From Desulfitobacterium sp. (GTDB lineage Bacteria > Bacillota > Desulfitobacteriia > Desulfitobacteriales > Desulfitobacteriaceae), in assembly GCF_035539115.1 (NCBI RefSeq), contig NZ_DATLJA010000011.1, forward strand, positions 20,564-44,563: a stretch of 24,000 nt of DNA, read 5' to 3'. The notes below the pieces were generated by a model, which worked only from the letters and a program-made list of their open reading frames with translations, searched no databases and had not been told where the DNA came from. The translations under genes and the position numbers were made by a program. Shown piece after piece: positions 6,995 to 21,717 of this stretch. Positions within the stretch are counted from its first letter, which is position 1, and each line of letters begins with the position of its first letter.

Positions 6995-7663
6995 TTATGA
7001 CGTTCGCGGTCTTTGTTTTTTATATCTACCAGCGAATAAGACGCCGACAATGAGGATTAGGGTTAAACTCCACCGAAGAATTAAATTGTCTGCAAAAATA
7101 GGCTGTAGAAACGGTTCATCCATTAGCATGGTGGAGGCAGTATAGGCAATAACACCGGCGCCAATCTCAATCAAAGAGGGAATGCGATCTAAGGCTTTAA
7201 TAACTAAGGTACTGCCCCAGACAACGATTGGAATACTAATGAATAAGCCGCAAATAACCAAGAGGTAACTTCCATGTGCTGCTCCGGCGACTGCAATAAC
7301 ATTATCTAGACCCATTACCGCATCGGCAACAATAATCGTCCGAATAGCGCCCCAGATACTTGTACTAGTGGCAACCTCATTGGATTTCTCTTGCGTAAGA
7401 AGTTTATACGCCATTCCCACAAGAAAGATTCCCCCGACAAGTAAGAGCCCCGGAATCTTAAGGAGCCAAACCGCGACAAGGGTAGTCAACGAACGAATAA
7501 TAATCGCACCGAGTGTTCCCCAAAAAATTACTTTTTTCTGATCGTGCTTAGGAAGATTACGGGCGGCTAAGCCGATCACAATTGCATTGTCTCCACCTAA
7601 TACCAAATCAATCATCACAATAGATAAAAGGGCTGTTAAGAAACCATGTCCCAAAAAGTCCAT
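6995..7663 (-). CDS. TerC/YjbE-family integral membrane protein (probable Mn2+ exporter class)
   Basis: 222-aa protein with about 7 TM segments and the duplicated signature GGDNAIVIG...GLDNVIAVAGAA typical of the TerC family. It is preceded by a yybP-ykoY riboswitch. Confidence 0.9.
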   Translation of the reverse strand: MDFLGHGFLTALLSIVMIDLVLGGDNAIVIGLAARNLPKHDQKKVIFWGTLGAIIIRSLTTLVAVWLLKIPGLLLVGGIFLVGMAYKLLTQEKSNEVATSTSIWGAIRTIIVADAVMGLDNVIAVAGAAHGSYLLVICGLFISIPIVVWGSTLVIKALDRIPSLIEIGAGVIAYTASTMLMDEPFLQPIFADNLILRWSLTLILIVGVLFAGRYKKQRPRTS

Positions 7664-7721
7664 TTTTCATCCTCACTCTCTGATCTTCTAATTGTTGTAG
7701 ATTAGGGTTAAAACTTAAAAA

Positions 7722-7850
7722 TCAAAATAAAAAAGACCTTTTACCCCTTATGGGCAAAGGTCTTGCAAACAACATCTCAAGTTGTCAACAAAGCCGGGAA
7801 CGTTAATTCCGTATTGACGGCTTTGCTGTAACAGCTACTCCCCTTTGAAC
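7722..7850 (-). promoter_or_regulatory. yybP-ykoY (Mn2+) riboswitch with intrinsic terminator, leader of the TerC gene
   Basis: The minus strand reads cAAAGGGGAGUAGCuguuacagcaaagCCGUCAAUACgg...cCCGGCUUUGUUGACAacuuGAGAuguuguUUGCAAGACCUUUg. This matches conserved blocks of the family as I recall them from the L. lactis aptamer (GGGGAGUAGC, GUCAAU, GGCUUUGUUGACA, GCAAGACC). The P1.1 3' strand overlaps the terminator aagaccuuugccc-auaa-gggguaaaaggucUUUUUU. Confidence 0.85.
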
Positions 7851-7861
7851 ACTACTCTTTT

Positions 7862-9182: not shown

Positions 9183-10368
9183 GACGGCCTTTGATTGGCA
9201 CGATGGGAATGGTTTATTTTTATACGGTTGAAGCGTTGAATGCAGACCTGTATTCACTCAAAATCGCTCGTTGGCAATTTTGGATTGTTTCGTTGTCGAC
9301 TGCCGGATTATTAGGGACACTGTTCTTGCGCATCGGCAATGGCCGGGAGTTTCTTGATGGTCTGCCGATGTTCTATGCTGGAATCTCGCTGGCCATTCTG
9401 CTAGGTGCCTATAACCTCATCCAAACCCTAAGAAAATATATGCAGCGCATAACCCCCGCATCTGCGATTATGACAGGCGGAATGATTTTTCTCTGCCTTT
9501 TATTAATTCCGAATGTGCTCAACTATACTAACCCCATAGCCGATGAAGCGGTGAAGTATTGGGTCGTCCATCTCTGGGAGGAAATGGCCTTCGAATTGAC
9601 CTCAAGTGGCTTTATTGCCTCATTTTTTATCGCAGCAGGTTTAGCTGAAAAAAAGGATATGGAGAAATGGCTCTATCTCGAAGCCGGTTTGGCGGTTTCG
9701 GGGGGATGTTTGGTACTGGTCATCATTATTACTGGATCGGTTTTCCGGCGATTTGGTTGATTATTGGCGTTGTCTTTAGCGTAATCCAAATGATTCCGGT
9801 GGGCTTGCTTGCCCATTTAACCTATAAAGGATTAAAAAAACATCGACCACTGGATCGACGGGAGAAATTAACGCTTTGGATGATTTTAAGTAGTTTATTT
9901 TATCATTTAACGGGTGCTTCGATGCTCGGAATGATGATGACGATACCCTGGATTAATCTTTATTCGCATGGCACCTATATTACGTCCGGACATGCCCATT
10001 TGGCGTTATTTGGCGTGATGGGTTTTCTCGTTTTGGCTGGATCACACGCTATTTTAAGCAATGGCTATGAATTATCACGTAAGAGTTACTTTTGGGGAGT
10101 TATTGGGGTTGTCTTGCTTAACGCAGGAGTTATCACGATGAGCTCATTTCTTCTTGTGGCAGGTTTGTTGCAAACTTATTTATGGCGATATTTAGGGATG
10201 AATTTTACGCAGGTTCAAGAATTAATTCAACCGTACTTGCTGGCACGGGTGGCAGGGGGGTCACTTTATACTGTCGGAAGTGTTATCCTTGGCTGGAGGA
10301 TGATTAAAGCTTGGTGGCTAACAAGAGAGGATGGAAAAATAGGTGCAGAAGTTTCAAAAAGAATTTGA
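9170..10368 (+). pseudogene. NorB-like heme-copper oxidase subunit I (nitric-oxide reductase / cbb3-type), 5'-truncated and frameshifted
   Basis: ORFs 9191-9760 and 9667-10368 are two frames of one gene. The ligand motifs VVHLWEE (helix VI), GTGHHYYW (helix VII) and SGHAHLALFG (helix X) appear in order, but the frame changes at a G6 run (9700-9705). The frame opens only at 9170, inside the end of the glycerate kinase gene, with no RBS. About 80 N-terminal residues, including the helix II His, are missing. Confidence 0.7.
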
Positions 10369-11101
10369 AGTTCACTACTTTGAGGTGAATTCTTATCAGG
10401 AACTAACCCCGCTTGCTTTGCTCAATTACTTGGAAGAGACCGCGATTGCTCATTCCGAATCGGTTGGATACGGGGTAAACCGGCTGAAAGAAGAGGGGTA
10501 TGGTTGGATTTTAACCCATTGGCAGATTGAATTTGAACAGTATCCTCGCCTCGAAGAGAAAATTAAGATCCAGACTTGGCCTTCGCGTTTCGAACGTTTT
10601 TACGCGGATCGGGAATTTTTAGTTTTGAATGCTGATGATGAAGTGATTGCCCGGGCGAGCTCGTTGTGGATCTTCTTTAATTTACGTAAAAGACGACCAC
10701 TGCGCGTTCCAAAGGAGATCATCGAAGCTTATACGTTTTTCCCAGAGAAAGTCATCTCAACTCCTTTCCCAGACTTTGAGTTCACTCAAAAGGGCAAAAC
10801 GGAACACTGTGAATTTATGGTTCGGCGGAGTGACATTGACACTAATGCCCATGTCAACAATGCCAAATATATTGAATGGGTGCTGGAAACAATTCCTGAA
10901 GAAGTGTACGCTACTTATCGAATTTCTTCACTTGAGGTTGTATACAAAAAAGAAAGCACTTATGGGCAGATGATCCAAGCCTTAACTGAGGAACTGGAGA
11001 GAAGTGATCAGGATGTTCACTATTTACACCGAATTTCGGGAACAGAAGGGGAGCAGGAATTAGCCTTGGCGCGTACGCGTTGGCACAAGGTTACTTTCTA
11101 A
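10343..11101 (+). CDS. Acyl-[acyl-carrier-protein] thioesterase (FatA/B-like, PF01643)
   Basis: 252-aa double hot-dog protein (FEVNSYQELTPLALLNYLEETAIAHSE...GYGWILTHWQIEF...RRSDIDTNAHVNNAKYIEW). GTG start. Confidence 0.85.
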   Translation: MQKFQKEFEVHYFEVNSYQELTPLALLNYLEETAIAHSESVGYGVNRLKEEGYGWILTHWQIEFEQYPRLEEKIKIQTWPSRFERFYADREFLVLNADDEVIARASSLWIFFNLRKRRPLRVPKEIIEAYTFFPEKVISTPFPDFEFTQKGKTEHCEFMVRRSDIDTNAHVNNAKYIEWVLETIPEEVYATYRISSLEVVYKKESTYGQMIQALTEELERSDQDVHYLHRISGTEGEQELALARTRWHKVTF

Positions 11102-11301: not shown

Positions 11302-11330
11302 TTGACTTTAATCTCTTTTTCGCATAATAT
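11302..11330 (+). promoter_or_regulatory. Sigma-A-type promoter TTGACT-17-TAATAT driving the second Mn riboswitch
   Basis: The -35 is at 11302-11307 and the -10 at 11325-11330, with an exact 17-nt spacer. It lies about 45 nt upstream of the aptamer core. Confidence 0.55.
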
Positions 11331-11340
11331 ATGGATATAG

Positions 11341-11510
11341 ATTCTTCTGGTTCAAATCTGAAACGGAAGAATGCATAAAGTAAGGGGAGTAGCGAGCGGC
11401 AGAAATGCCGTGGATAGTGTCGTCATTCGGTCCGATGTGGACCCGGCTCTATCAACGTTTATGAAATTGCAAGACCTTACCCACAGCAGGGGGTGAGGTC
11501 TTTATTTTTG
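11341..11510 (+). promoter_or_regulatory. Second yybP-ykoY (Mn2+) riboswitch with intrinsic terminator and no transporter downstream
   Basis: The sequence is GUAAGGGGAGUAGCgagcggcagaaaugccgugg...GUGUCGUCAUUCGGuccgauguggaCCCGGCUCUAUCAACGuuuaugaaaUUGCAAGACCUUAC. P1.1 covaries with the TerC copy (GUAAGG/CCUUAC here, AAAGG/CCUUU there). The terminator is aagaccuuaccc-acagca-gggggugaggucUUUAUUUUU at 11471-11510. Confidence 0.72.
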
Positions 11511-11802
11511 TATCAGGGTGGTGAACGGAGGGATAAAGGATTAAAATTCATGGAAAATTCATTACTATTTCATGATTTCGTCTAACCGCTTTGTTATACT
11601 ATAGGTAATCCATAAACGGCTCGATCCTCTGAACCTGCTAAAACTGAAATCTCTCTTTATATCGAAAATTTAAAAGGATTTTATAGAAAGAAGGTGAAAT
11701 GAAGTCTAAGGATTATAATTTATCTTTATCTGAAAAGTTATAGTTATAAGCGCTGATTGGGAATATGAATAAATAAGGTAGAATTGAAGGGAGAAATTTA
11801 AA

Positions 11803-12483
11803 ATGGGTTTATTTTCTCGTGTCAAAGATTTATTGCAGGCCAACATTACGGATTTGGTGAACAAGTCGGAGGATCCGGAAAAAATGCTGAATCTCTATGT
11901 TGATCGGGCGACTGAAGAAGTAAGGAACTTCCAAATTCAAGTGAATCGCGCCGTAGCCGATAAAATTCAACTTGAAGAGCGAATTGCAACCCTGACTAAA
12001 GAAATTGAGCAACGGACGGAACAAGCGACCTTAGCGGTACAACAGGGCAAAGATGACCTAGCTCGCACGGCACTGACTCTGAAGAAACAGGCAGAAACAA
12101 GTTTGGTAGATTTCCAAACGCAATTAATCGATCAAGCTAAGGCGGTTGAGGATTTACAGGAGAACCTGCGAATTTTAACTGAGAAATTGGCGAAAGCTAA
12201 AATGGAACGAAATAACCTGGTGATGCGTCAACGTCGTGCAGAAACAATGAAAAAGGCGAATGAAGCTGTTTCCGGTATGTCCACTCACGATTCTCTGGCT
12301 GATGTGGATCGGATGAAGGAGCGTGTGGAACGGATGGAGGCGGAAGCAAAAGCTTCCCGGACGATGGTGAACACCGGAAATGCAGTTGAAGATCAATTCG
12401 CGGAACTCGAAAAGAGTAAAGCGAATTCCGAAGTTGAGGATGAACTTGCAAATCTAAAAGCACAGTTCAAGAAGGAAGAATAA
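11803..12483 (+). CDS. pspA: PspA/IM30-family membrane-stress protein
   Basis: 226-aa coiled-coil protein with the family N-terminus MGLFSRVKDLLQANITDLVNKSEDPEKMLNLYV. RBS is GAAGGGAG. Confidence 0.9.
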   Translation: MGLFSRVKDLLQANITDLVNKSEDPEKMLNLYVDRATEEVRNFQIQVNRAVADKIQLEERIATLTKEIEQRTEQATLAVQQGKDDLARTALTLKKQAETSLVDFQTQLIDQAKAVEDLQENLRILTEKLAKAKMERNNLVMRQRRAETMKKANEAVSGMSTHDSLADVDRMKERVERMEAEAKASRTMVNTGNAVEDQFAELEKSKANSEVEDELANLKAQFKKEE

Positions 12484-12517
12484 AGTGTCGAGCGAAAGAT
12501 TAAAGTAGGTGTTGGGC

Positions 12518-13471
12518 ATGAAGAGGTGGACGAAACGATTTAGTCTTGCCATCATGACGCTCATGCTCTTCGCGAGCCAGGCCACAGTGGCCTTGGCTCG
12601 CGCGGGCGGAGGGAAGGGTGGAAGTGTTGGTGGAAGCGCTGGCCGTAGCTTTAGTGGTGGCTCAGCTGCTGGAGGGTTATCTGGTGGCGGGTATTCGAGC
12701 GGGGGCTTTGGCGGCTTCTCCTTTTTCCCATTTTTCTGGGGGCCATCTTTCTTTGGGGGAGGCGGAAGTTCTCTTTTTGGTGGCTTATTTAGCCTAATAT
12801 TTATTCTGATAATTGCTTTTCTGGTCATTAAAGCCTTCCGTTCTTCAAGACGTACTTGGGGAAAACAGCGTGGACCTAGAAAGGGAGAGTGGGAAAAGAA
12901 TCCATCGCCATTGACTCCTGTTGATGTGACGGGCCGACCGATTACCAATGAGGAGAATCTTAAGCGTTTTGGCAAAGCTATACAGTTTACTCGAGATAAT
13001 ATGAGCTATTATGCAGAAACTTTCCCACGTTGGGATCGTGATTTTCTTATTGGACGGGTGCGACAGGTCTATTTTTGGATTCAAGATGCTTGGGCCAGAC
13101 AGGACCTGAGTGAGGGTGAAAATTATTTAAGTTTGACGCTTTTGGCGAAATATCGAACGGATCTTGCTAATCTGCGCAATCGTGGAGAACGGAACGTGAT
13201 CAAAGAGCCAGTTCTTCACCCGGGTGATATCGAGTTTATTCAGAGTCATCTGGATGACTCTGAACAGCATTTTGTCACCATGATTTCTGCTAGTTTGATT
13301 GATTACACGGTGGATGCCTCCGGAAGGATTATTGCAGGTGAAGATGACAATCGTCTCTTCTTTACCGAGTTTTGGGAATTCAACTGGGAGCAGGATCAAT
13401 GGGTACTCTCTAACATTTATCAAGAAGATGCTTTGGAGATTACGAAGATTGCCCGTGGAGATGAACTTTAA
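12518..13471 (+). CDS. Membrane-anchored Tim44-like domain protein with a Gly-rich N-terminal region
   Basis: It has a signal-like N-terminus (MKRWTKRFSLAIMTLMLFASQATVALA), a long G/S/F low-complexity tract and one TM (LFSLIFILIIAFLVI). The C-terminal roughly 170 aa resemble the Tim44-like fold (FLIGRVRQVYFWIQDAW...FTEFWEFNWEQDQWVLSNI). ATG 12518 is preferred over GTG 12509 on RBS spacing. Confidence 0.75.
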   Translation: MKRWTKRFSLAIMTLMLFASQATVALARAGGGKGGSVGGSAGRSFSGGSAAGGLSGGGYSSGGFGGFSFFPFFWGPSFFGGGGSSLFGGLFSLIFILIIAFLVIKAFRSSRRTWGKQRGPRKGEWEKNPSPLTPVDVTGRPITNEENLKRFGKAIQFTRDNMSYYAETFPRWDRDFLIGRVRQVYFWIQDAWARQDLSEGENYLSLTLLAKYRTDLANLRNRGERNVIKEPVLHPGDIEFIQSHLDDSEQHFVTMISASLIDYTVDASGRIIAGEDDNRLFFTEFWEFNWEQDQWVLSNIYQEDALEITKIARGDEL

Positions 13472-13492: not shown

Positions 13493-13530
13493 AAAAAATC
13501 AGTCGTCTTATTAAAGACGGCTGATTCTTA
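13493..13530. terminator. Bidirectional terminator between the pspA operon and the convergent TVP38 gene
   Basis: The structure is AAAAAAA-tcagtcgtctt-atta-aagacggctga-TTCTT. Confidence 0.6.
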
Positions 13531-16412: not shown

Positions 16413-17225
16413 TTAGTTTATAAAGAAGGGAACGACGCCGATTAAAAAGAGTAATTCTGAAAGCTCAATGCTGGCACCGTATAGATCCCCGGTTAATCCG
16501 CCCAAGAGGTGCGAGACTTTCTGTGTAAAATAAAAAAGAAAGAGAAAAGCAAGAAGAAGGCCAACCAAGCCGGCCCACCCCAGAAGATAGACAGCAAGAG
16601 CCAAGCAGATCAACCCTTCAATAATAAAAAAACAGGGTCGATTAAGCGAACTTTCGTGGAAACCTTGCCCCAGTCCTGTTTTGCGCGCATACGGATAAAA
16701 AAGTATGCCGAACAAAAATAACCAGCGTGAAAGCGTCGGCATGATTAAAACAGCAAAGAAAGGTCCAAAAGTGCTTAAGGATTGGTAGTTAAGAGAAGAA
16801 AAGTTAGAAGAGAAAGACAGTAAAGAACCGCTTCCTTGTAGAAGCCCTGCTAAGAGAGAGAACTTGAGGAGGAGTATGGCACTTGCGCTTAACGCGCCAA
16901 ACGATCCGACTCGGCTATCTTTCATGATCTCGAGCATTCTTTCTGGAGTTCGGGCGGACCAGAGGGCGTCCATGCTATCCATGAAGCCATCCATATGGAT
17001 ACCGCCTGTCAATAGTAATTCTTCAATCAGCAAGAAAGCGGCAACGACAAGGGGAGGATAAAAACTTCGCAAAAGGAGGGCACTTAAGCTCATAATAATT
17101 CCAAGCAAAAGACCGATGAGCGGATAATAACGCTGGCTGGCTGTAAACTCTTCTTGAGTGACATCCGCGGGCGCAGGAAAAGGCAGTCGCGTCAGAAAGG
17201 TTACGGCAATTAAAAATCCACGCAT
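16413..17225 (-). CDS. cobS: Adenosylcobinamide-GDP ribazoletransferase (cobalamin synthase)
   Basis: 270-aa polytopic protein with the CobS N-terminus FLIAVTFLTRLPFP and the HMDGFMDSMDAL motif. It starts 2 nt after the cobU stop. Confidence 0.9.
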   Translation of the reverse strand: MRGFLIAVTFLTRLPFPAPADVTQEEFTASQRYYPLIGLLLGIIMSLSALLLRSFYPPLVVAAFLLIEELLLTGGIHMDGFMDSMDALWSARTPERMLEIMKDSRVGSFGALSASAILLLKFSLLAGLLQGSGSLLSFSSNFSSLNYQSLSTFGPFFAVLIMPTLSRWLFLFGILFYPYARKTGLGQGFHESSLNRPCFFIIEGLICLALAVYLLGWAGLVGLLLAFLFLFYFTQKVSHLLGGLTGDLYGASIELSELLFLIGVVPFFIN

Positions 17226-17227
17226 AA

Positions 17228-17842
17228 TTACGGACGCTCCTGTTGAGGGTTCAAGGAGTTTAAGAGTTCCTGCCCAGACTGTTTGACTTCGATGGGATAA
17301 CCCGCGACGACATAAAATACTTTATCTGCTTGACGAGCAAGGAGCTGATTGGCACGTCCTGCTAAATCACGGTATGAGCGAGCCATAGGATTATCCGGGA
17401 CGATGCCCTGGCCGACCTCATTCGTCACCATAATGATTTGGGGAGTTATTTCCTGGGCAAGGGTTGCGACTTTCTGGACTTGCTCCAGGATTTTTTCCTC
17501 GGCTTCGGGAGTCAGGGTATCAGGGAAAAGTGATTCTGAGGTAGAACCCAAAGATTTGAGTAAGAGATTGGAAAGCCAGATCGTTACACAATCCAGAAGT
17601 ACGACTGCATTTTTATAGCGAATTTCTTCCAAGACAACCGGAATAGCGAAGGGTTCCTCAATGAGTTGCCAGTTGTCTGGTCGCTGGTGTTGGTGCTTTT
17701 TCACTCGCCAGGTCATTTCCTCATCGAGAACCTGGGCTGTAGCGATATAGATAACGGGTCGACCGGAGTGAGCTGCGAGACGTTCCGCAAAGGTACTTTT
17801 GCCGCTGCGGGCTCCACCGGTGATGAGTGTGAAGTTAGACAT
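17228..17842 (-). CDS. cobU: Adenosylcobinamide kinase / adenosylcobinamide-phosphate guanylyltransferase
   Basis: The true start is taken at Met42 of the listed ORF (MSNFTLITGGARSGKSTFAE), because CobU P-loops sit at the extreme N-terminus. A GGAGG lies upstream. The 41-codon extension to 17965 has no family counterpart. Confidence 0.88.
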   Translation of the reverse strand: MSNFTLITGGARSGKSTFAERLAAHSGRPVIYIATAQVLDEEMTWRVKKHQHQRPDNWQLIEEPFAIPVVLEEIRYKNAVVLLDCVTIWLSNLLLKSLGSTSESLFPDTLTPEAEEKILEQVQKVATLAQEITPQIIMVTNEVGQGIVPDNPMARSYRDLAGRANQLLARQADKVFYVVAGYPIEVKQSGQELLNSLNPQQERP

Positions 17843-18151
17843 TGGGATTATCGGCCTCCATTCCGCTTCCGAGGGCACCCTCGCGTATAGGCCGGGGCGC
17901 TTGTAGACCAAACCTAAGGTCCTGACTCTGATTTGAGGTGGACCGATAACACTTAGACGTGTCATCGCCCGCCAAAATCGTCTCCTGACTCTGTTGGCGG
18001 TTGCGCACGTCGTGTGCGCAACCCTTCTTTCTGGGGTATCGCCAGGGCCTAAGTTTGGTGGCTACTCGCTTTAAGGCCTAAGGGAGGGTTGCCCTCGGAA
18101 GCTGGGCTGTTTCTTAAGGGTAATTTAGGGACTTTGGGGTTAGTTTTTAAG

Positions 18152-18367: not shown

Positions 18368-19495
18368 TCAGAACTCTCCTGTGGTCACGCCGGCTGATTC
18401 GAAGGTGGCCATTTCGTCGGCGATTTTGAGGGCGGCTTCGATTATTGGAAACATGAGGACTGCGCCTGTGCCTTCCCCAAGTCTCATGTGAAAATCAAGT
18501 CTGGGTGTGAGTCCGAGTTGTTTTAGGGCTAAGCGGTGACCTTGTTCTTCTGAGTTATGGGAAGAGATCATATAGGGGGCGGAGAGGGGGGCAAGTTTTG
18601 CTGCGGTGAGGGCTGCTGCTGATGAGATAATACCGTCGAGAATGATGGGTACGTGTTGGTAAGCGGCCTCGAGGATTGCTCCAGTTAGTGCAGCAATTTC
18701 GAGTCCCCCAATTTTGGCGAGGGTATCGAGGGGGGCAGCGGGATCAGGCCGATTGACTTCAATTGCGCGTTTAATGACGTCTTGTTTATGTTTCAGGGCA
18801 TCGTCCTTAACTCCTGTACCTCGTCCTGTGACTTCTTCGACCGAGTGTCCTGTAAAGACTGAAACAAGGGCAGCACTTGGAGTTGTATTGCCAATTCCAA
18901 CTTCACCTGTTGCCAAAAGGTTAATTCCTAAGTTGATCGCTTTGGCGGCAACATGGGCACCGGTAAGAAGTGCGAGTAAGGCCTCTTGTCGGGTCATTGC
19001 TGGGCCTTGAGTCATATTATTGGTGCCATTTTTGACGCGGTTGGCCATTAGTTCAGGAGGGTCTAAGGGAGAAGCAATCCCTATGTCTGTGCAGATGAGT
19101 TCAGCTCCGCCATGCTCGGCGAGGACATTAATGCCTGCCCCTCCTTTAAGGTAGCTATAGAACATTTCAACAGTAATTTCCTGGGGAGCTGCACTGACTC
19201 CTTCAGCCACGACACCATGGTCTCCGGCCATAAGAAGGACAGCTTTTCCTTTGATTTTTGGTTGTGAGGTGCGATAGATTCCAGCGAGTTGTTGGGCAAT
19301 ATCCTCTAAGACGCCCAAACTTCTGAGAGGTTTAATTTTCGCATTCAAACGTTCTTGCATGCCAGAGATGGATTCTTGGTCGAGCTTTTCAATTCTGCTC
19401 GTAAGCTCTTTTAAGGCAGCTTCGAGGTCTTGTCCTTCTGCTTCCTTAAGATTATTTAGACCATGGAATTTTTCCCCGTTGTTTAGTGTCGACAT
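18368..19495 (-). CDS. cobT: Nicotinate-nucleotide--dimethylbenzimidazole phosphoribosyltransferase
   Basis: 375-aa protein with CobT motifs (MAGDHGV, GGAGINVLA, GEVGIGNTTPSAAL, LGEGTGA). RBS is GGAGGAG. Confidence 0.9.
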   Translation of the reverse strand: MSTLNNGEKFHGLNNLKEAEGQDLEAALKELTSRIEKLDQESISGMQERLNAKIKPLRSLGVLEDIAQQLAGIYRTSQPKIKGKAVLLMAGDHGVVAEGVSAAPQEITVEMFYSYLKGGAGINVLAEHGGAELICTDIGIASPLDPPELMANRVKNGTNNMTQGPAMTRQEALLALLTGAHVAAKAINLGINLLATGEVGIGNTTPSAALVSVFTGHSVEEVTGRGTGVKDDALKHKQDVIKRAIEVNRPDPAAPLDTLAKIGGLEIAALTGAILEAAYQHVPIILDGIISSAAALTAAKLAPLSAPYMISSHNSEEQGHRLALKQLGLTPRLDFHMRLGEGTGAVLMFPIIEAALKIADEMATFESAGVTTGEF

Positions 19496-19523: not shown

Positions 19524-19765
19524 AAAAAATAAAGTCCCGCCACAATTTTTGTTGTGGTCGGGACTTTGCCGTCATCTCCGCCGCTTTCCAATACCCCGGA
19601 AAGACTTTTTCTTCTTAGGCAGGTCTCCTGGCTCAGACTCAAGCGCCCTATCGCTCCTTCCCAGCAAATGCCAGTGGATTAGCGGGGGCTTGTCTTTACA
19701 GTGGTGGGTCCGCACCGGATTAAACACCGGTTTCCCTATTCTCCCCCAAAGGGGCACCTAAAAAA
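19524..19765 (-). promoter_or_regulatory. Cobalamin (AdoCbl) riboswitch with intrinsic terminator, leader of cobTUS
   Basis: The minus strand reads uAGGUGCCCC...AGGGAAaccGGUGuuuAAUCCggugCGGaCCCACCACUGUAA...GAGCCAGGAGACCUGCC, which includes the B12 box. It is followed by aaagucccgaccacaac-aaaaa-uuguggcgggacuuuAUUUUUUU, then the RBS and cobT. Confidence 0.92.
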
Positions 19766-19974
19766 TAACTTTAATTTGAATTTATCTTAAGATTAACAAA
19801 GATTCGGAAAAAGTCAAGAACTAAATATAGGGTGAGGTAACTCATCCTTTTGTTATGGGAATATAAGGTGTCAAATATAGAATGAATTTCAAATCTATGA
19901 TATAATACATCTCGAATAGAGGAAGATAATATGATATTGTACTATAACACTAAAATTGAAGGAGCATAAGAAAG

Positions 19975-21393
19975 ATGAAACGGGGAGAATTGAGGCAATC
20001 GGAAACATTAAAATATCAGGAGTTAGAGGGTAAGCGCTCGCATGGGATAGTGGAAAACCTGAAATATTCTTTTATCTTAGAAGGTTTAGTCATTTACAGA
20101 GTGCTTCGTGAAGATACGGTCGTGGAAAGTTTACAGAACCTATTTACTTCTTTAGCAGAGGAAGAGCTTGATCTTATAAAAGTTCATCAAAACTATTATA
20201 CGTTTTGCGCTCTGGCAACTGAAAAGAATTGGCCTAAGTATTTATGGGATCTTGTCTTAGAGTCGGACAATGTTTTTTCCCGGCAAGCCAGTTTTAAAGC
20301 GTGGGAAAACTTAGATACAGGACTTAAAAATCTCGTGATTCGTGACCTAAAGGCAGTTCGGAGGATTGCCGGTCTTCAACCAGAAGATTTACAACGGATG
20401 GTTTGTGAAAGAATGGAGAAGCAAACTGAACTGCCAGGGGAAGAGTGGCTCGAAAGGCTAGAACAGTGGCCGTTATGGGCTCCCCAAGCAGGCGAAGTCC
20501 AACATGATTCAAGTCGCGCGGGTCAATTTTTAGAAACGACACGGAATGAAGTGAAGAAGGTTTTGCTTGCTGACGATGAGGAAAAAGCTGGACGAGAATT
20601 GGCCACTTTTTACCGAAAAATTGGCGTAGGACTGATGGCCGCCGGATTAGCCTTCAAATGGGATGGGAAAGCTAAGGTCCTTGTTAGTGTTACCCCTGAT
20701 CCGATCCGGAAGGAGCAGTTAATTGGGCAAGAGCGTGAACAAGGCATCCTTTTTGAAAACACGAATTTCTTCCTGGCAGGCTATCCTGCAAATAATGTAA
20801 TTCTTTATGGAAACCGGGGAACGGGCAAATCTTCTTTGGTTAAGGCCCTTCTTCAGGAGTATTGTGATCAGGGACTAAGATTAGTGGAACTTTCCAAACA
20901 AGATTTAACGGATTTTCCGTTGATTATTCGTTATCTCGCGCCTCAACCTCAAAAGTTTATTCTTTTTATTGATGATCTTTCGTTTGAGGAGACGGAGTTG
21001 GCCTATAAAGCGTTGAAGACTGTGTTGGAGGGAGGCTTGGAAAAGCGTCCTGACAATGTGCTTATTTATGCGACTTCGAATCGCCGGCATCTTATTCGCG
21101 AGAACTTCTCCGAACGTCAAGGCGACGAGGTTAATGTCCGGGATACCTTAGATGAAAAGCTTTCCCTAGCGGATCGTTTTGGGATCACAATTACTTTCCC
21201 CTCACCAGACCAGGAGGAATACTTGAGGATTGTGGAAGAATTGGCTGCTCAGGAGGGGTTAACGCTTGAAAAAGCACAGCTTCGTCAGCAGGCGTTGAGG
21301 TGGGTTATGATGCATAATGCGCGTTCAGGTCGTACCGCTCGACAATTCATTGATTATTTGGCGGCTCAACAAAAAGTTAATGAGCAAATCTAG
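19975..21393 (+). CDS. DUF815-family AAA-type ATPase with a long N-terminal extension
   Basis: It has Walker A (LYGNRGTGKSSLVKAL), Walker B (FILFIDDLSFEE) and sensor (IYATSNRRHL) motifs arranged as in PF05673 proteins. RBS is GAAGGAG. Confidence 0.8.
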   Translation: MKRGELRQSETLKYQELEGKRSHGIVENLKYSFILEGLVIYRVLREDTVVESLQNLFTSLAEEELDLIKVHQNYYTFCALATEKNWPKYLWDLVLESDNVFSRQASFKAWENLDTGLKNLVIRDLKAVRRIAGLQPEDLQRMVCERMEKQTELPGEEWLERLEQWPLWAPQAGEVQHDSSRAGQFLETTRNEVKKVLLADDEEKAGRELATFYRKIGVGLMAAGLAFKWDGKAKVLVSVTPDPIRKEQLIGQEREQGILFENTNFFLAGYPANNVILYGNRGTGKSSLVKALLQEYCDQGLRLVELSKQDLTDFPLIIRYLAPQPQKFILFIDDLSFEETELAYKALKTVLEGGLEKRPDNVLIYATSNRRHLIRENFSERQGDEVNVRDTLDEKLSLADRFGITITFPSPDQEEYLRIVEELAAQEGLTLEKAQLRQQALRWVMMHNARSGRTARQFIDYLAAQQKVNEQI

Positions 21394-21396
21394 GTG

Positions 21397-21444
21397 GAAT
21401 CGTAATCTTTAACTAAGAAAAGTGTGGAGAACTCCACACTTTTC
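21397..21444. terminator. 23-bp-arm perfect palindrome acting as a bidirectional terminator
   Basis: The sequence is ctttaactaagaaaagtgtggag-aa-ctccacacttttcttagttaaag. The core stem agtgtggag/ctccacact is flanked by A- and T-runs. It starts 4 nt after the DUF815 stop and ends at the Nramp-remnant stop. Confidence 0.6.
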
Positions 21445-21717
21445 TTAGTTAAAGAGCGTTAAATAGATCAGAACGGCATTAAGCGAGATAATAAGCGTGA
21501 CGATGATAACCCCCACGATATTGGTCAGCTTTTTATTCACTATTTCTCGCATAACAGATTTGCGGCTCGTGATCAAAAGAAGAGGGATAACCGCAGCAGG
21601 AAGAGCAAAACTAAGCGTGACCTGGCTGAGAATCAGGATTTTCATCGGATTGATACCAATCCAGAGGAGAATCATCGCCGGGATCATGGTGATAATTCGG
21701 CGAATATTACACGGCAA
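21445..21717 (-). pseudogene. C-terminal remnant (about the last 87 aa) of a second Nramp/MntH paralog
   Basis: NIRRIITMIPAMILLWIGINPMKILILSQVTLSFALPAAVIPLLLITSRKSVMREIVNKKLTNIVG... aligns by eye, at roughly half identity, to the C-terminus of the intact MntH in this window (INLRRLITMTPALIIIALGVNPMSALVISQVVLSFALPFAIVPMLWITSRKDLMGSLVNQPLTKVAG...). The preceding roughly 340 aa are absent. Confidence 0.75.

Follow-up and report, generated by a model that had tools for sequence, protein, structure and literature searches.

The known cargo of yybP-ykoY riboswitches consists of Mn2+ exporters and metal-handling membrane proteins (PMC8632737); the reviews and papers we searched name MntP, TerC (Alx, YkoY/MeeY), YybP, P-type ATPases, and UPF0016/MneA. 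Here we describe a yybP-ykoY-type riboswitch in a 24,000-nt stretch of Desulfitobacterium sp. DNA (contig NZ_DATLJA010000011.1, positions 20,564 to 44,563; the whole stretch is hereafter called the window) for which this exporter context, customary for the RNA but no part of its definition, is missing—the next genes are pspA and a gene for a Tim44-like protein. The literature searched yielded no link between pspA and a riboswitch of any kind, although the gene-context tables of two 2015 discovery papers may hold a mention, and no description of a psp operon that takes its input from an RNA or a metal; apparent "pspA" text matches in the riboswitch literature were to the Pspac promoter. Going by sequence, what is new at this locus is a known riboswitch class in a family-wide wiring to pspA.

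The ON-type Mn2+ riboswitches of Firmicutes (L. lactis yoaB; B. subtilis yybP and ykoY/meeY; S. pneumoniae mgtA) have in common with the pspA-linked RNA a four-helix aptamer, an L1 formed by GGGGAGUAG and GCAAGACC, an L3 that reads GUCG-NCA, and a short P1.1 helix with a 3' strand that doubles as the 5' arm of an intrinsic terminator. Competition between P1.1 and the terminator gives rise to Mn2+-dependent antitermination (PMC6754395, PMC11087558). The differences lie in the cargo and in its distance: the described systems control a transporter or a TerC/YybP-type protein across a spacer of tens of nucleotides, whereas the pspA-linked units have spacers of 160-430 nt and precede a gene for a peripheral membrane-remodelling and stress protein, together with its Tim44-like neighbour. 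Further differences, seen in the sub-clade to which the window belongs, are an additional 5' hairpin, a P4 of reduced size, and a second promoter inside the spacer.

In E. coli, the alx (TerC) and mntP riboswitches have the same aptamer class and act largely at translation and pausing; they differ from the pspA-linked units in that they control exporters and lie 77-113 nt from aptamer to ATG. The alx riboswitch also responds to alkaline pH, which links the class to a membrane/pH stress signal (PMC13594968). Canonical copies are present in the same genomes as the pspA-linked ones—before TerC in the window and in one relative (L009), and before GDT1/UPF0016 in another (L019)—and are alike in their L1, L3, and P1.1 cores and in terminator logic. 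Their P2 sets them apart: a long helix of 6 bp with a GNRA-like loop in the pspA type, and a 4-bp CUGU/ACAG stub in the TerC type. The two types are distinct sequence families. As for PspA itself, known PspA/LiaH regulation runs through PspF and sigma-54 in Proteobacteria, and through LiaRS and sigma-W in Bacillus. These systems have a dedicated stress-type pspA promoter, to which a TTCAT-repeat promoter at the present locus (described below) may correspond.

We put a probability of roughly 0.6 on the reading that 11302-11510 is a functional Mn2+-sensing, transcriptional-ON yybP-ykoY riboswitch that serves as the metal-gated promoter and leader of a pspA-Tim44-like operon. The unit and the genes that follow it are laid out below.

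11302 to 11330, plus strand: promoter P1, with -35 TTGACT (11302-11307), a 17-nt spacer, and -10 TAATAT (11325-11330)
11341 to 11372, plus strand: extra 5' hairpin in which ATTCTTC (11341-11347) pairs with GAAGAAT (11366-11372), between the predicted transcript start and P1.1
11380 to 11480, plus strand: yybP-ykoY-type aptamer, from an RF00080 match, RNAalifold, covariation, and cross-detection by our model R1
11380 to 11385 with 11475 to 11480, plus strand: helix P1.1, its 3' strand CCTTAC at 11475-11480
11384 to 11393, plus strand: conserved block GGGGAGTAGC, recurring once, at 7834-7843 on the minus strand
11384 to 11393, plus strand: L1/P1.2 block GGGGAGUAGC, its partner GCAAGACC at 11469-11476
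11396 to 11411, plus strand: helix P2, with a GAAA loop
11413 to 11422 with 11444 to 11453, plus strand: helix P3.1
11419 to 11430, plus strand: conserved block GTCGTCATTCGG
11423 to 11428, plus strand: L3, UCAUUC
11425, plus strand: L3 adenosine at the site of the invariant Mn2+-contacting A, an equivalence drawn from alignment of GUCG-UCA only, not from structure
11429 to 11443, plus strand: helix P3.2
11454 to 11468, plus strand: reduced P4
11467 to 11476, plus strand: conserved block TTGCAAGACC
11471 to 11510, plus strand: expression platform, a 12-bp terminator hairpin (11471-11502) and then the U-tract TATTTTTG to 11510; -19.6 kcal/mol
11511 to 11802, plus strand: non-coding spacer between terminator and pspA, 292 nt
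11803 to 12483, plus strand: pspA, PspA/IM30 family, 226 aa (Pfam PF04012, E 1.5e-36)
12509 to 13471, plus strand: Tim44-like-domain membrane protein, 320 aa (Pfam PF04280), with a hydrophobic, Gly-rich N-terminal region; it starts 25 nt after pspA
13504 to 13519, no strand assigned: small palindromic hairpin between the convergent Tim44-like and VTT/DedA genes (pattern scan only), probably the operon end

Most of this anatomy had been proposed in a sequence-only reading of the window, and it held up: the promoter and its 17-nt spacing, the three conserved blocks, the terminator that overlaps the aptamer and ends at 11510, and pspA followed by a Tim44-like gene as the next genes were all found where that reading had placed them. 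Its description of the element as the second riboswitch of the window was also correct, the other copy lying on the minus strand directly before a TerC gene. The predicted start of the riboswitch transcript is near 11337. Counterparts of P1 (TTGAC[AT]-N16/17-TAnnnT, some 45 nt upstream of the aptamer) are present in all 14 loci examined in detail. The platform has the layout of a canonical ON-switch: the terminator 5' arm, AAGACCUUACCC, contains the P1.1 3' strand (CCUUAC is shared), and in the same 14 loci hairpins of 11-13 bp overlap AAGACCTTAC, or the P1.1 3' strand. Between the end of the upstream acyl-ACP thioesterase gene at 11101 and pspA at 11803 there is no open reading frame (ORF) of 60 aa or more on either strand, again as had been claimed, and we found no further terminator between 11510 and pspA. 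The pspA product aligns to PF04012 at 126.5 bits (cut-off 33.9), with residues 2-221 on profile positions 1-217 of 220, and shares 89% identity with its counterpart in Desulfitobacterium sp. Sab5. The Tim44-like gene is probably the second gene of the pspA operon; the pair is kept in nearly all loci of the family.

RF00080 is the best Rfam family at 11377-11527, with 28.3 bits and an E value of 6.4e-6 in a 601-nt search at permissive thresholds; when the full 24 kb was searched on both strands with 4227 families, the E value at the pspA-side site was 2.5e-4. The gathering score of RF00080 in Rfam 15 is 45 bits, and no match anywhere in the window attains it. The sequence-only reading had taken a covariance-model score below threshold to count against the element; the score does fall below, but the threshold itself failed our positive controls, and we dropped it as a criterion of membership. 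Among these controls, the experimentally validated mntP leader of E. coli K-12 (L081 7462-7576) scores 41.6 bits, the validated alx leader (L082 6372-6504) goes undetected at E<=1, the TerC-linked copy of the window scores 25.1 bits, and none of the aptamers of 13 relatives passes, TerC- and GDT1-fronting copies included. Since validated members also fall short of 45 bits, this cut-off is uninformative with the model copy used—and annotation pipelines that rely on it will under-call the class. The comparator copy and its gene are as follows.

7711 to 7855, minus strand: Mn riboswitch before TerC, not part of the pspA unit
6995 to 7663, minus strand: TerC gene downstream of the comparator (Pfam TerC, E 7.5e-46)

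An independent comparison comes from R1, a covariance model for which only pspA-linked copies served as the training set. Run on 26 kb of E. coli DNA, it matches nothing but two members of the class, the leaders of mntP (E 0.0025) and alx (E 0.031), and in the fetched loci it finds copies outside its training set before TerC and GDT1/UPF0016 genes. The TerC-linked copy of the window, likewise outside the training set, scores 30.3 bits; overall, pspA-type copies score 83-120 bits and TerC-type copies 30-36 bits. The L1 core, GGGGAGUAG at 11384-11392 with GCAAGACC at 11469-11476, is invariant in 13 of 13 pspA-linked copies and is shared with E. coli mntP (GGGGAGUAGC, GCGAGACC). In L3 the window reads GUCG-UCA(11425)-UUC, which by alignment only is matched to UCA41AUUC of L. 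lactis; the invariant Mn2+-contacting adenosine is A41 there and A48 in X. oryzae (PMC6754395). By homology, the pspA-linked RNA is a real member of the yybP-ykoY class, and, the gathering score aside, it agrees with the class in all the features of sequence and structure that we tested.

The L3 motif NCA is present in 11 of the 13 pspA-linked copies, the other two reading ACU. In these two (L022 3666-3778 and L024 3705-3811) L3 is GUCG-ACU-AAG, and the site at which the Mn2+-contacting A is expected holds a U or a 1-nt insertion; they may be specificity variants.

The fold is conserved as well as the cores. RNAalifold applied to 13 pspA-linked homologues recovers P1.1, P1.2, P2, and P3.1, and in per-sequence folds P3.2 forms in every sequence, with at least eight different stem sequences. 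In an alignment of 17 sequences, itself fitted to the model, the share of paired cells is 97.1% and falls to 27-39% when the partners are slid; compensatory changes occur in 18 of 29 pairs, and none of 500 shuffles reaches the observed values. The fold z-score is -4.1. The two copies of the window covary in P1.1, as had been pointed out from the sequence: GTAAGG/CCTTAC on the pspA side and CAAAGG/CCTTTG on the TerC side. Because P2 differs in length between these two copies, MAFFT misaligned their 5' halves, and they were instead compared by per-helix dissection and covariance-model-based alignment. The four-way-junction architecture (P1.1-L1-P1.2, P2, P3.1-L3-P3.2, P4) is present; P4 is minimal in the window's sub-clade, with about 2+2 bp and an A-rich bulge, and is a normal hairpin of 3-5 bp in distant loci (5 bp in the L021 type). 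The extra 5' hairpin covaries too, its strands remaining complementary despite different letters in four loci—TTTTCGG/CCGAAAA in L003, and others in L004, L005, and L009. We found no precedent for this hairpin in the literature searched; a paper on a "nascent helix" was considered and rejected as one, the helix described there being P1.1.

Conservation of gene context ties the unit to pspA. A protein-seeded scan with one genome per species returned 29 loci of the family, 13 of them with an R1 aptamer; once the window, a pair of metagenome contigs, D. metallireducens, and Desulfitobacterium sp. AusDCA are counted in, the riboswitch loci of Desulfitobacteriaceae number 18. In all 18 the aptamer lies on the same strand as pspA, 198-432 nt upstream, and pspA is the downstream neighbour, mostly followed by the Tim44-like gene; no exporter or any other gene stands between riboswitch and pspA. 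Promoter, aptamer, and terminator are intact in all of them, down to PspA identities of about 74-76%. The upstream neighbour, in contrast, turns over at least eight times—acyl-ACP thioesterase, COX1 (on either strand), ProRS, aldehyde:ferredoxin oxidoreductase (AFOR), TusA/DsrE, a pyridoxal-phosphate enzyme, a cupin protein, and a divergent GDT1 with its own riboswitch. A metagenome scan seeded with the RNA gave pspA downstream in both of the two contigs long enough to judge. Cultured carriers are D. metallireducens, Desulfitobacterium sp. Sab5, and Desulfitobacterium sp. AusDCA; in D. metallireducens DSM 15288 (CP007032.1) the aptamer occupies L087 2573-2681, with pspA at 3001.

The history of the locus can be followed on a tree of PspA, where one clade has the riboswitch in 16 of its 17 members and another, the core Desulfosporosinus with 14 members, lacks it throughout. 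Desulfosporosinus sp. OT and BG have a syntenic pspA-Tim44-like locus that lacks the riboswitch; they have also a second pspA, between proS and rimP-nusA, which nests beside that of the window on the tree. This second pspA carries the promoter, the riboswitch, and the spacer, from which we take it that riboswitch and pspA moved as one module. Beyond the family the pairing was not seen: the PspA protein search returned only matches of at least 79% identity, all within the family, and 49 pspA loci from Myxococcota and other distant groups held no riboswitch-pspA pairing. Five riboswitch-less Desulfosporosinus loci have at the corresponding position a GACCTTAC..GTAAGGTC hairpin, about 100-fold enriched relative to other loci, just after a GDSL-lipase gene (plus strand; L012 3808-3840, L013 ~3802, L015 ~2445, L030 ~3736, L008 ~3735); the L012 remnant even retains CAAGACCTTAC. 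The hairpin is probably the terminator of a deleted aptamer, in five related loci that may represent a single event, and perhaps now terminates the GDSL-lipase gene.

Two further arrangements in relatives deserve mention. In L019, divergent Mn riboswitches stand back to back, one at 2945-3064 (minus strand) leading to GDT1/UPF0016 (2256-2822, minus strand) and the other at 3656-3766 (plus strand) leading to pspA (4001, plus strand); the pspA copy may have arisen from an arrangement of this kind. In some Desulfosporosinus a flotillin/SPFH gene lies directly upstream of pspA (L025 2154-3647 and L028 2448-3953, plus strand), a neighbour consistent with a membrane-organisation and stress neighbourhood.

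A mechanism can be proposed by analogy with the ON-type systems. P1, a near-consensus sigma-70-type promoter, would fire constitutively. At low Mn2+ the 12-bp terminator would form and the transcript, of about 170 nt, would end near 11510; once Mn2+ is high, L1 and L3 would dock around the ion and stabilise the short P1.1 helix, and this helix would withhold the terminator 5' arm, so that polymerase could cross the 292-nt spacer and transcribe pspA and the Tim44-like gene. The TTCAT-repeat promoter of the window's sub-clade would act as an independent input, probably dependent on a stress regulator, and Mn2+ and a second signal would then converge on pspA. What the data themselves show is the anatomy, a conserved and covarying structure, homology to validated members, the lack of a gene or terminator in between, and the evolutionary tie to pspA; Mn2+ binding, antitermination, read-through, and the physiology are inferred. 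Members of the PspA family safeguard the integrity of the membrane and the proton-motive force. A plausible physiological rationale would be protection of both during Mn2+ excess.

Three elements were located in the spacer.

11547 to 11600, plus strand: probable internal promoter P2 (distinct from helix P2), with TTCAT three times at exact 11-nt spacing (11547, 11558, 11569) and an extended -10 TGTTATACT at 11592-11600
11676 to 11692, plus strand: purine-rich block GGATTTTATAGAAAGAA(GG) of the pspA leader, reading GGATTTT..GAAAGAAGG
11757 to 11784, plus strand: weak proximal promoter-like site TTGGGA-16-TAGAAT, from a consensus scan (9/12 matches); not conserved

Several points weigh against a metal-gated leader. 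At 292 nt, against about 60 nt for the TerC copy, the spacer is long, and it is unstructured and poorly conserved; spacers of this sort are atypical for transcriptional riboswitches, and read-through across it into pspA is something we infer. Within the window's sub-clade (the window, L003-L006, L084, and partly L009), no part of the spacer is better conserved than the TTCAT-repeat region, which had been overlooked by the sequence-only reading; with a promoter here, pspA in the sub-clade would not depend on read-through alone and could be expressed without P1. The scan for promoters was blind to those of alternative sigma factors, so that a spacer with "no promoter" is weak evidence. The reduced P4 may compromise the four-way junction, and the aptamer does score below the Rfam cut-off. 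Finally, the core Desulfosporosinus have pspA-Tim44-like and no aptamer; having lost the one and kept the other, they indicate that the Mn input is dispensable.

The internal site itself is a probable second promoter, regulator-dependent, and its repeats look like a site for a response-regulator-type activator before pspA. It is absent from more distant riboswitch-bearing loci and missing in half of the loci scanned. In 7 of 16 loci scanned—all distant, all riboswitch-bearing—no sigma-70-like or extended -10 match was found in the spacer, which leaves P1 as the only recognisable promoter upstream of pspA there. Two other candidates in this region were rejected: the spacer as a second structured RNA (it is no more structured than shuffles, z = 0.07, with Rfam matches at noise level only), and a sigma-54 promoter in the conserved leader block, which was judged by eye, with no tool run, to have an unfit GG-GC spacing. 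Purine blocks related to that of the window (GGAATTTT..GGAG, often followed by ATG-TAA) are found upstream of pspA both with and without a riboswitch, which assigns the block to the leader or promoter region of pspA and not to the riboswitch. In several relatives it takes the form of a "start-stop" mini-ORF, GGAG-N5-6-ATG-TAA, which has a strong Shine-Dalgarno sequence and precedes pspA by about 100-190 nt (L008, L010, L011, L012, L013, L016, L022, L024, L030, L085); the ATG is not kept in L017, L029, and L031, and in Desulfosporosinus the mini-ORF is followed by a conserved TTGCAA-N17-TAAAAT.

The sequence-only reading had left three interpretations open: a long leader coupling pspA to Mn2+, an orphan left after loss of its cargo gene, and a stand-alone terminated RNA. 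Comparative genomics favours the first, through the 18 loci and the module that moved as a whole, and the orphan is rejected at the window locus. The stand-alone RNA is the most serious competitor, although we consider it improbable at perhaps one chance in five. It would be a product of about 170 nt from P1, acting in trans or as a buffer or decoy for Mn2+, with pspA using its own promoter or promoters and the adjacency of the two having no meaning in cis. Terminated riboswitch RNAs that act in trans exist in other classes, such as SreA and SreB, derived from SAM riboswitches in Listeria. Such an RNA would suit the strong terminator and a spacer that is both long and unstructured; it would also suit the window's sub-clade, where a conserved internal promoter follows directly on the terminator. 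However, it would leave unexplained why the element has stayed next to pspA, in the same orientation, in 18 of 18 loci through so many upstream turnovers, and why the element was transferred together with pspA; the seven loci with no recognisable spacer promoter also speak against it. A constitutive small RNA, moreover, would not need the overlap between P1.1 and terminator that is retained everywhere.

Much less probable is a role as insulator, in which the unit mainly stops transcription arriving from the upstream glycerate kinase-COX1-thioesterase operon, or in which Mn-dependent read-through from P1 modulates the internal promoter by interference, to negative or neutral effect, and adds no pspA mRNA. 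There is indeed no separate terminator between the thioesterase gene and the riboswitch, the internal promoter lies only about 40-90 nt past the terminator, and the hairpin that survives in core Desulfosporosinus adjoins an upstream GDSL-lipase gene. Yet insulation would not need the near-consensus promoter that the unit has at every locus, and the internal promoter is missing in half of the loci.

Slightly less favoured again is the view that the RNA does not sense Mn2+—that it is a look-alike, a specificity variant for another metal or for pH, or an aptamer inactivated by the reduction of P4. Its appeal lies in the sub-threshold Rfam score, the minimal P4 of the sub-clade, the U at the expected discriminator A in L022 and L024, and the alkaline-pH response of E. 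coli alx (PMC13594968). Against this, validated members fail the same cut-off, the L1 and L3 cores are identical to those of canonical copies with A11425 in place, the compensatory changes mark purifying selection, and R1 cross-detects both mntP and alx.

That the riboswitch is the decaying orphan of a deleted exporter gene, beside pspA by accident, is very unlikely: no transporter lies downstream, and true remnants exist in the family in the form of the aptamer-less hairpin before pspA in five Desulfosporosinus loci, but the exporter gene that the sequence-only reading thought relatives might show between riboswitch and pspA was looked for and found in none of the 18 loci, and there the aptamer is maintained by compensatory changes, with promoter and terminator intact. 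Least likely of all is a hidden small-protein cargo, be it a short spacer ORF (e.g. 11699-11743, MKSKDYNLSLSEKL) or the start-stop of relatives; the Shine-Dalgarno-like purine block with an ATG in several leaders invites the idea, but spacers of divergent loci share no conserved micro-ORF, peptide, or peptide 6-mers, lengths and frames differ, the ATG is missing in several loci, and the block is present in riboswitch-less loci too.

Other features of the window lie outside the pspA unit. A gene of the COX1 family (haem-copper oxidase subunit I-like) is broken into two overlapping ORFs, 9191-9760 and 9667-10368 (plus strand); the orthologue is a single intact ORF both in L005 (1812-3197) and in D. 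metallireducens (L087 188-1651, 487 aa), so the copy in the window is either a frameshifted pseudogene or an assembly error. A cobalamin riboswitch (RF00174, 109.7 bits) at 19601-19776 on the minus strand stands upstream of a string of cobT/cobU/cobS-like genes. A perfect palindromic hairpin at 21405-21456, between a gene ending at 21393 and the next ORFs, gave a spurious match to a miRNA family on both strands and is probably a bidirectional terminator.

18368 to 19495, 17228 to 17965, and 16413 to 17225, minus strand: cobT/cobU/cobS-like gene string

Returning to the proposed Mn2+-responsive leader of pspA and the Tim44-like gene, its conservation across a clade of anaerobic Firmicutes suggests that membrane protection may be turned on as Mn rises. 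An ecological rationale exists, since Mn(IV) reduction yields Mn2+ at the cell surface of the anaerobes that carry the arrangement, and Desulfitobacterium and Desulfosporosinus are reported to be enriched in Mn(IV)-reducing cultures (PMC12569786). We lean, by a little over even odds, towards a wider proposal: that a Mn2+ riboswitch directly induces the ESCRT-III-like PspA and its Tim44-like partner and not a transporter, that Mn2+ would thus be an inducer of a phage-shock-type response in metal-reducing Desulfitobacteriaceae, that membrane or proton-motive-force damage would be a consequence of Mn2+ excess to which selection has responded, and that tandem promoters would combine Mn2+ with a protein-regulator input. 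The arrangement is carried by cultured, sequenced strains, and the hypothesis is therefore directly testable. The conserved wiring to pspA would extend the yybP-ykoY regulon to a membrane-stress effector; if true, it would give a handle on what Mn2+ excess damages in cells, and on the signals behind Psp-type systems, with an inducer that is chemically defined and RNA-encoded.

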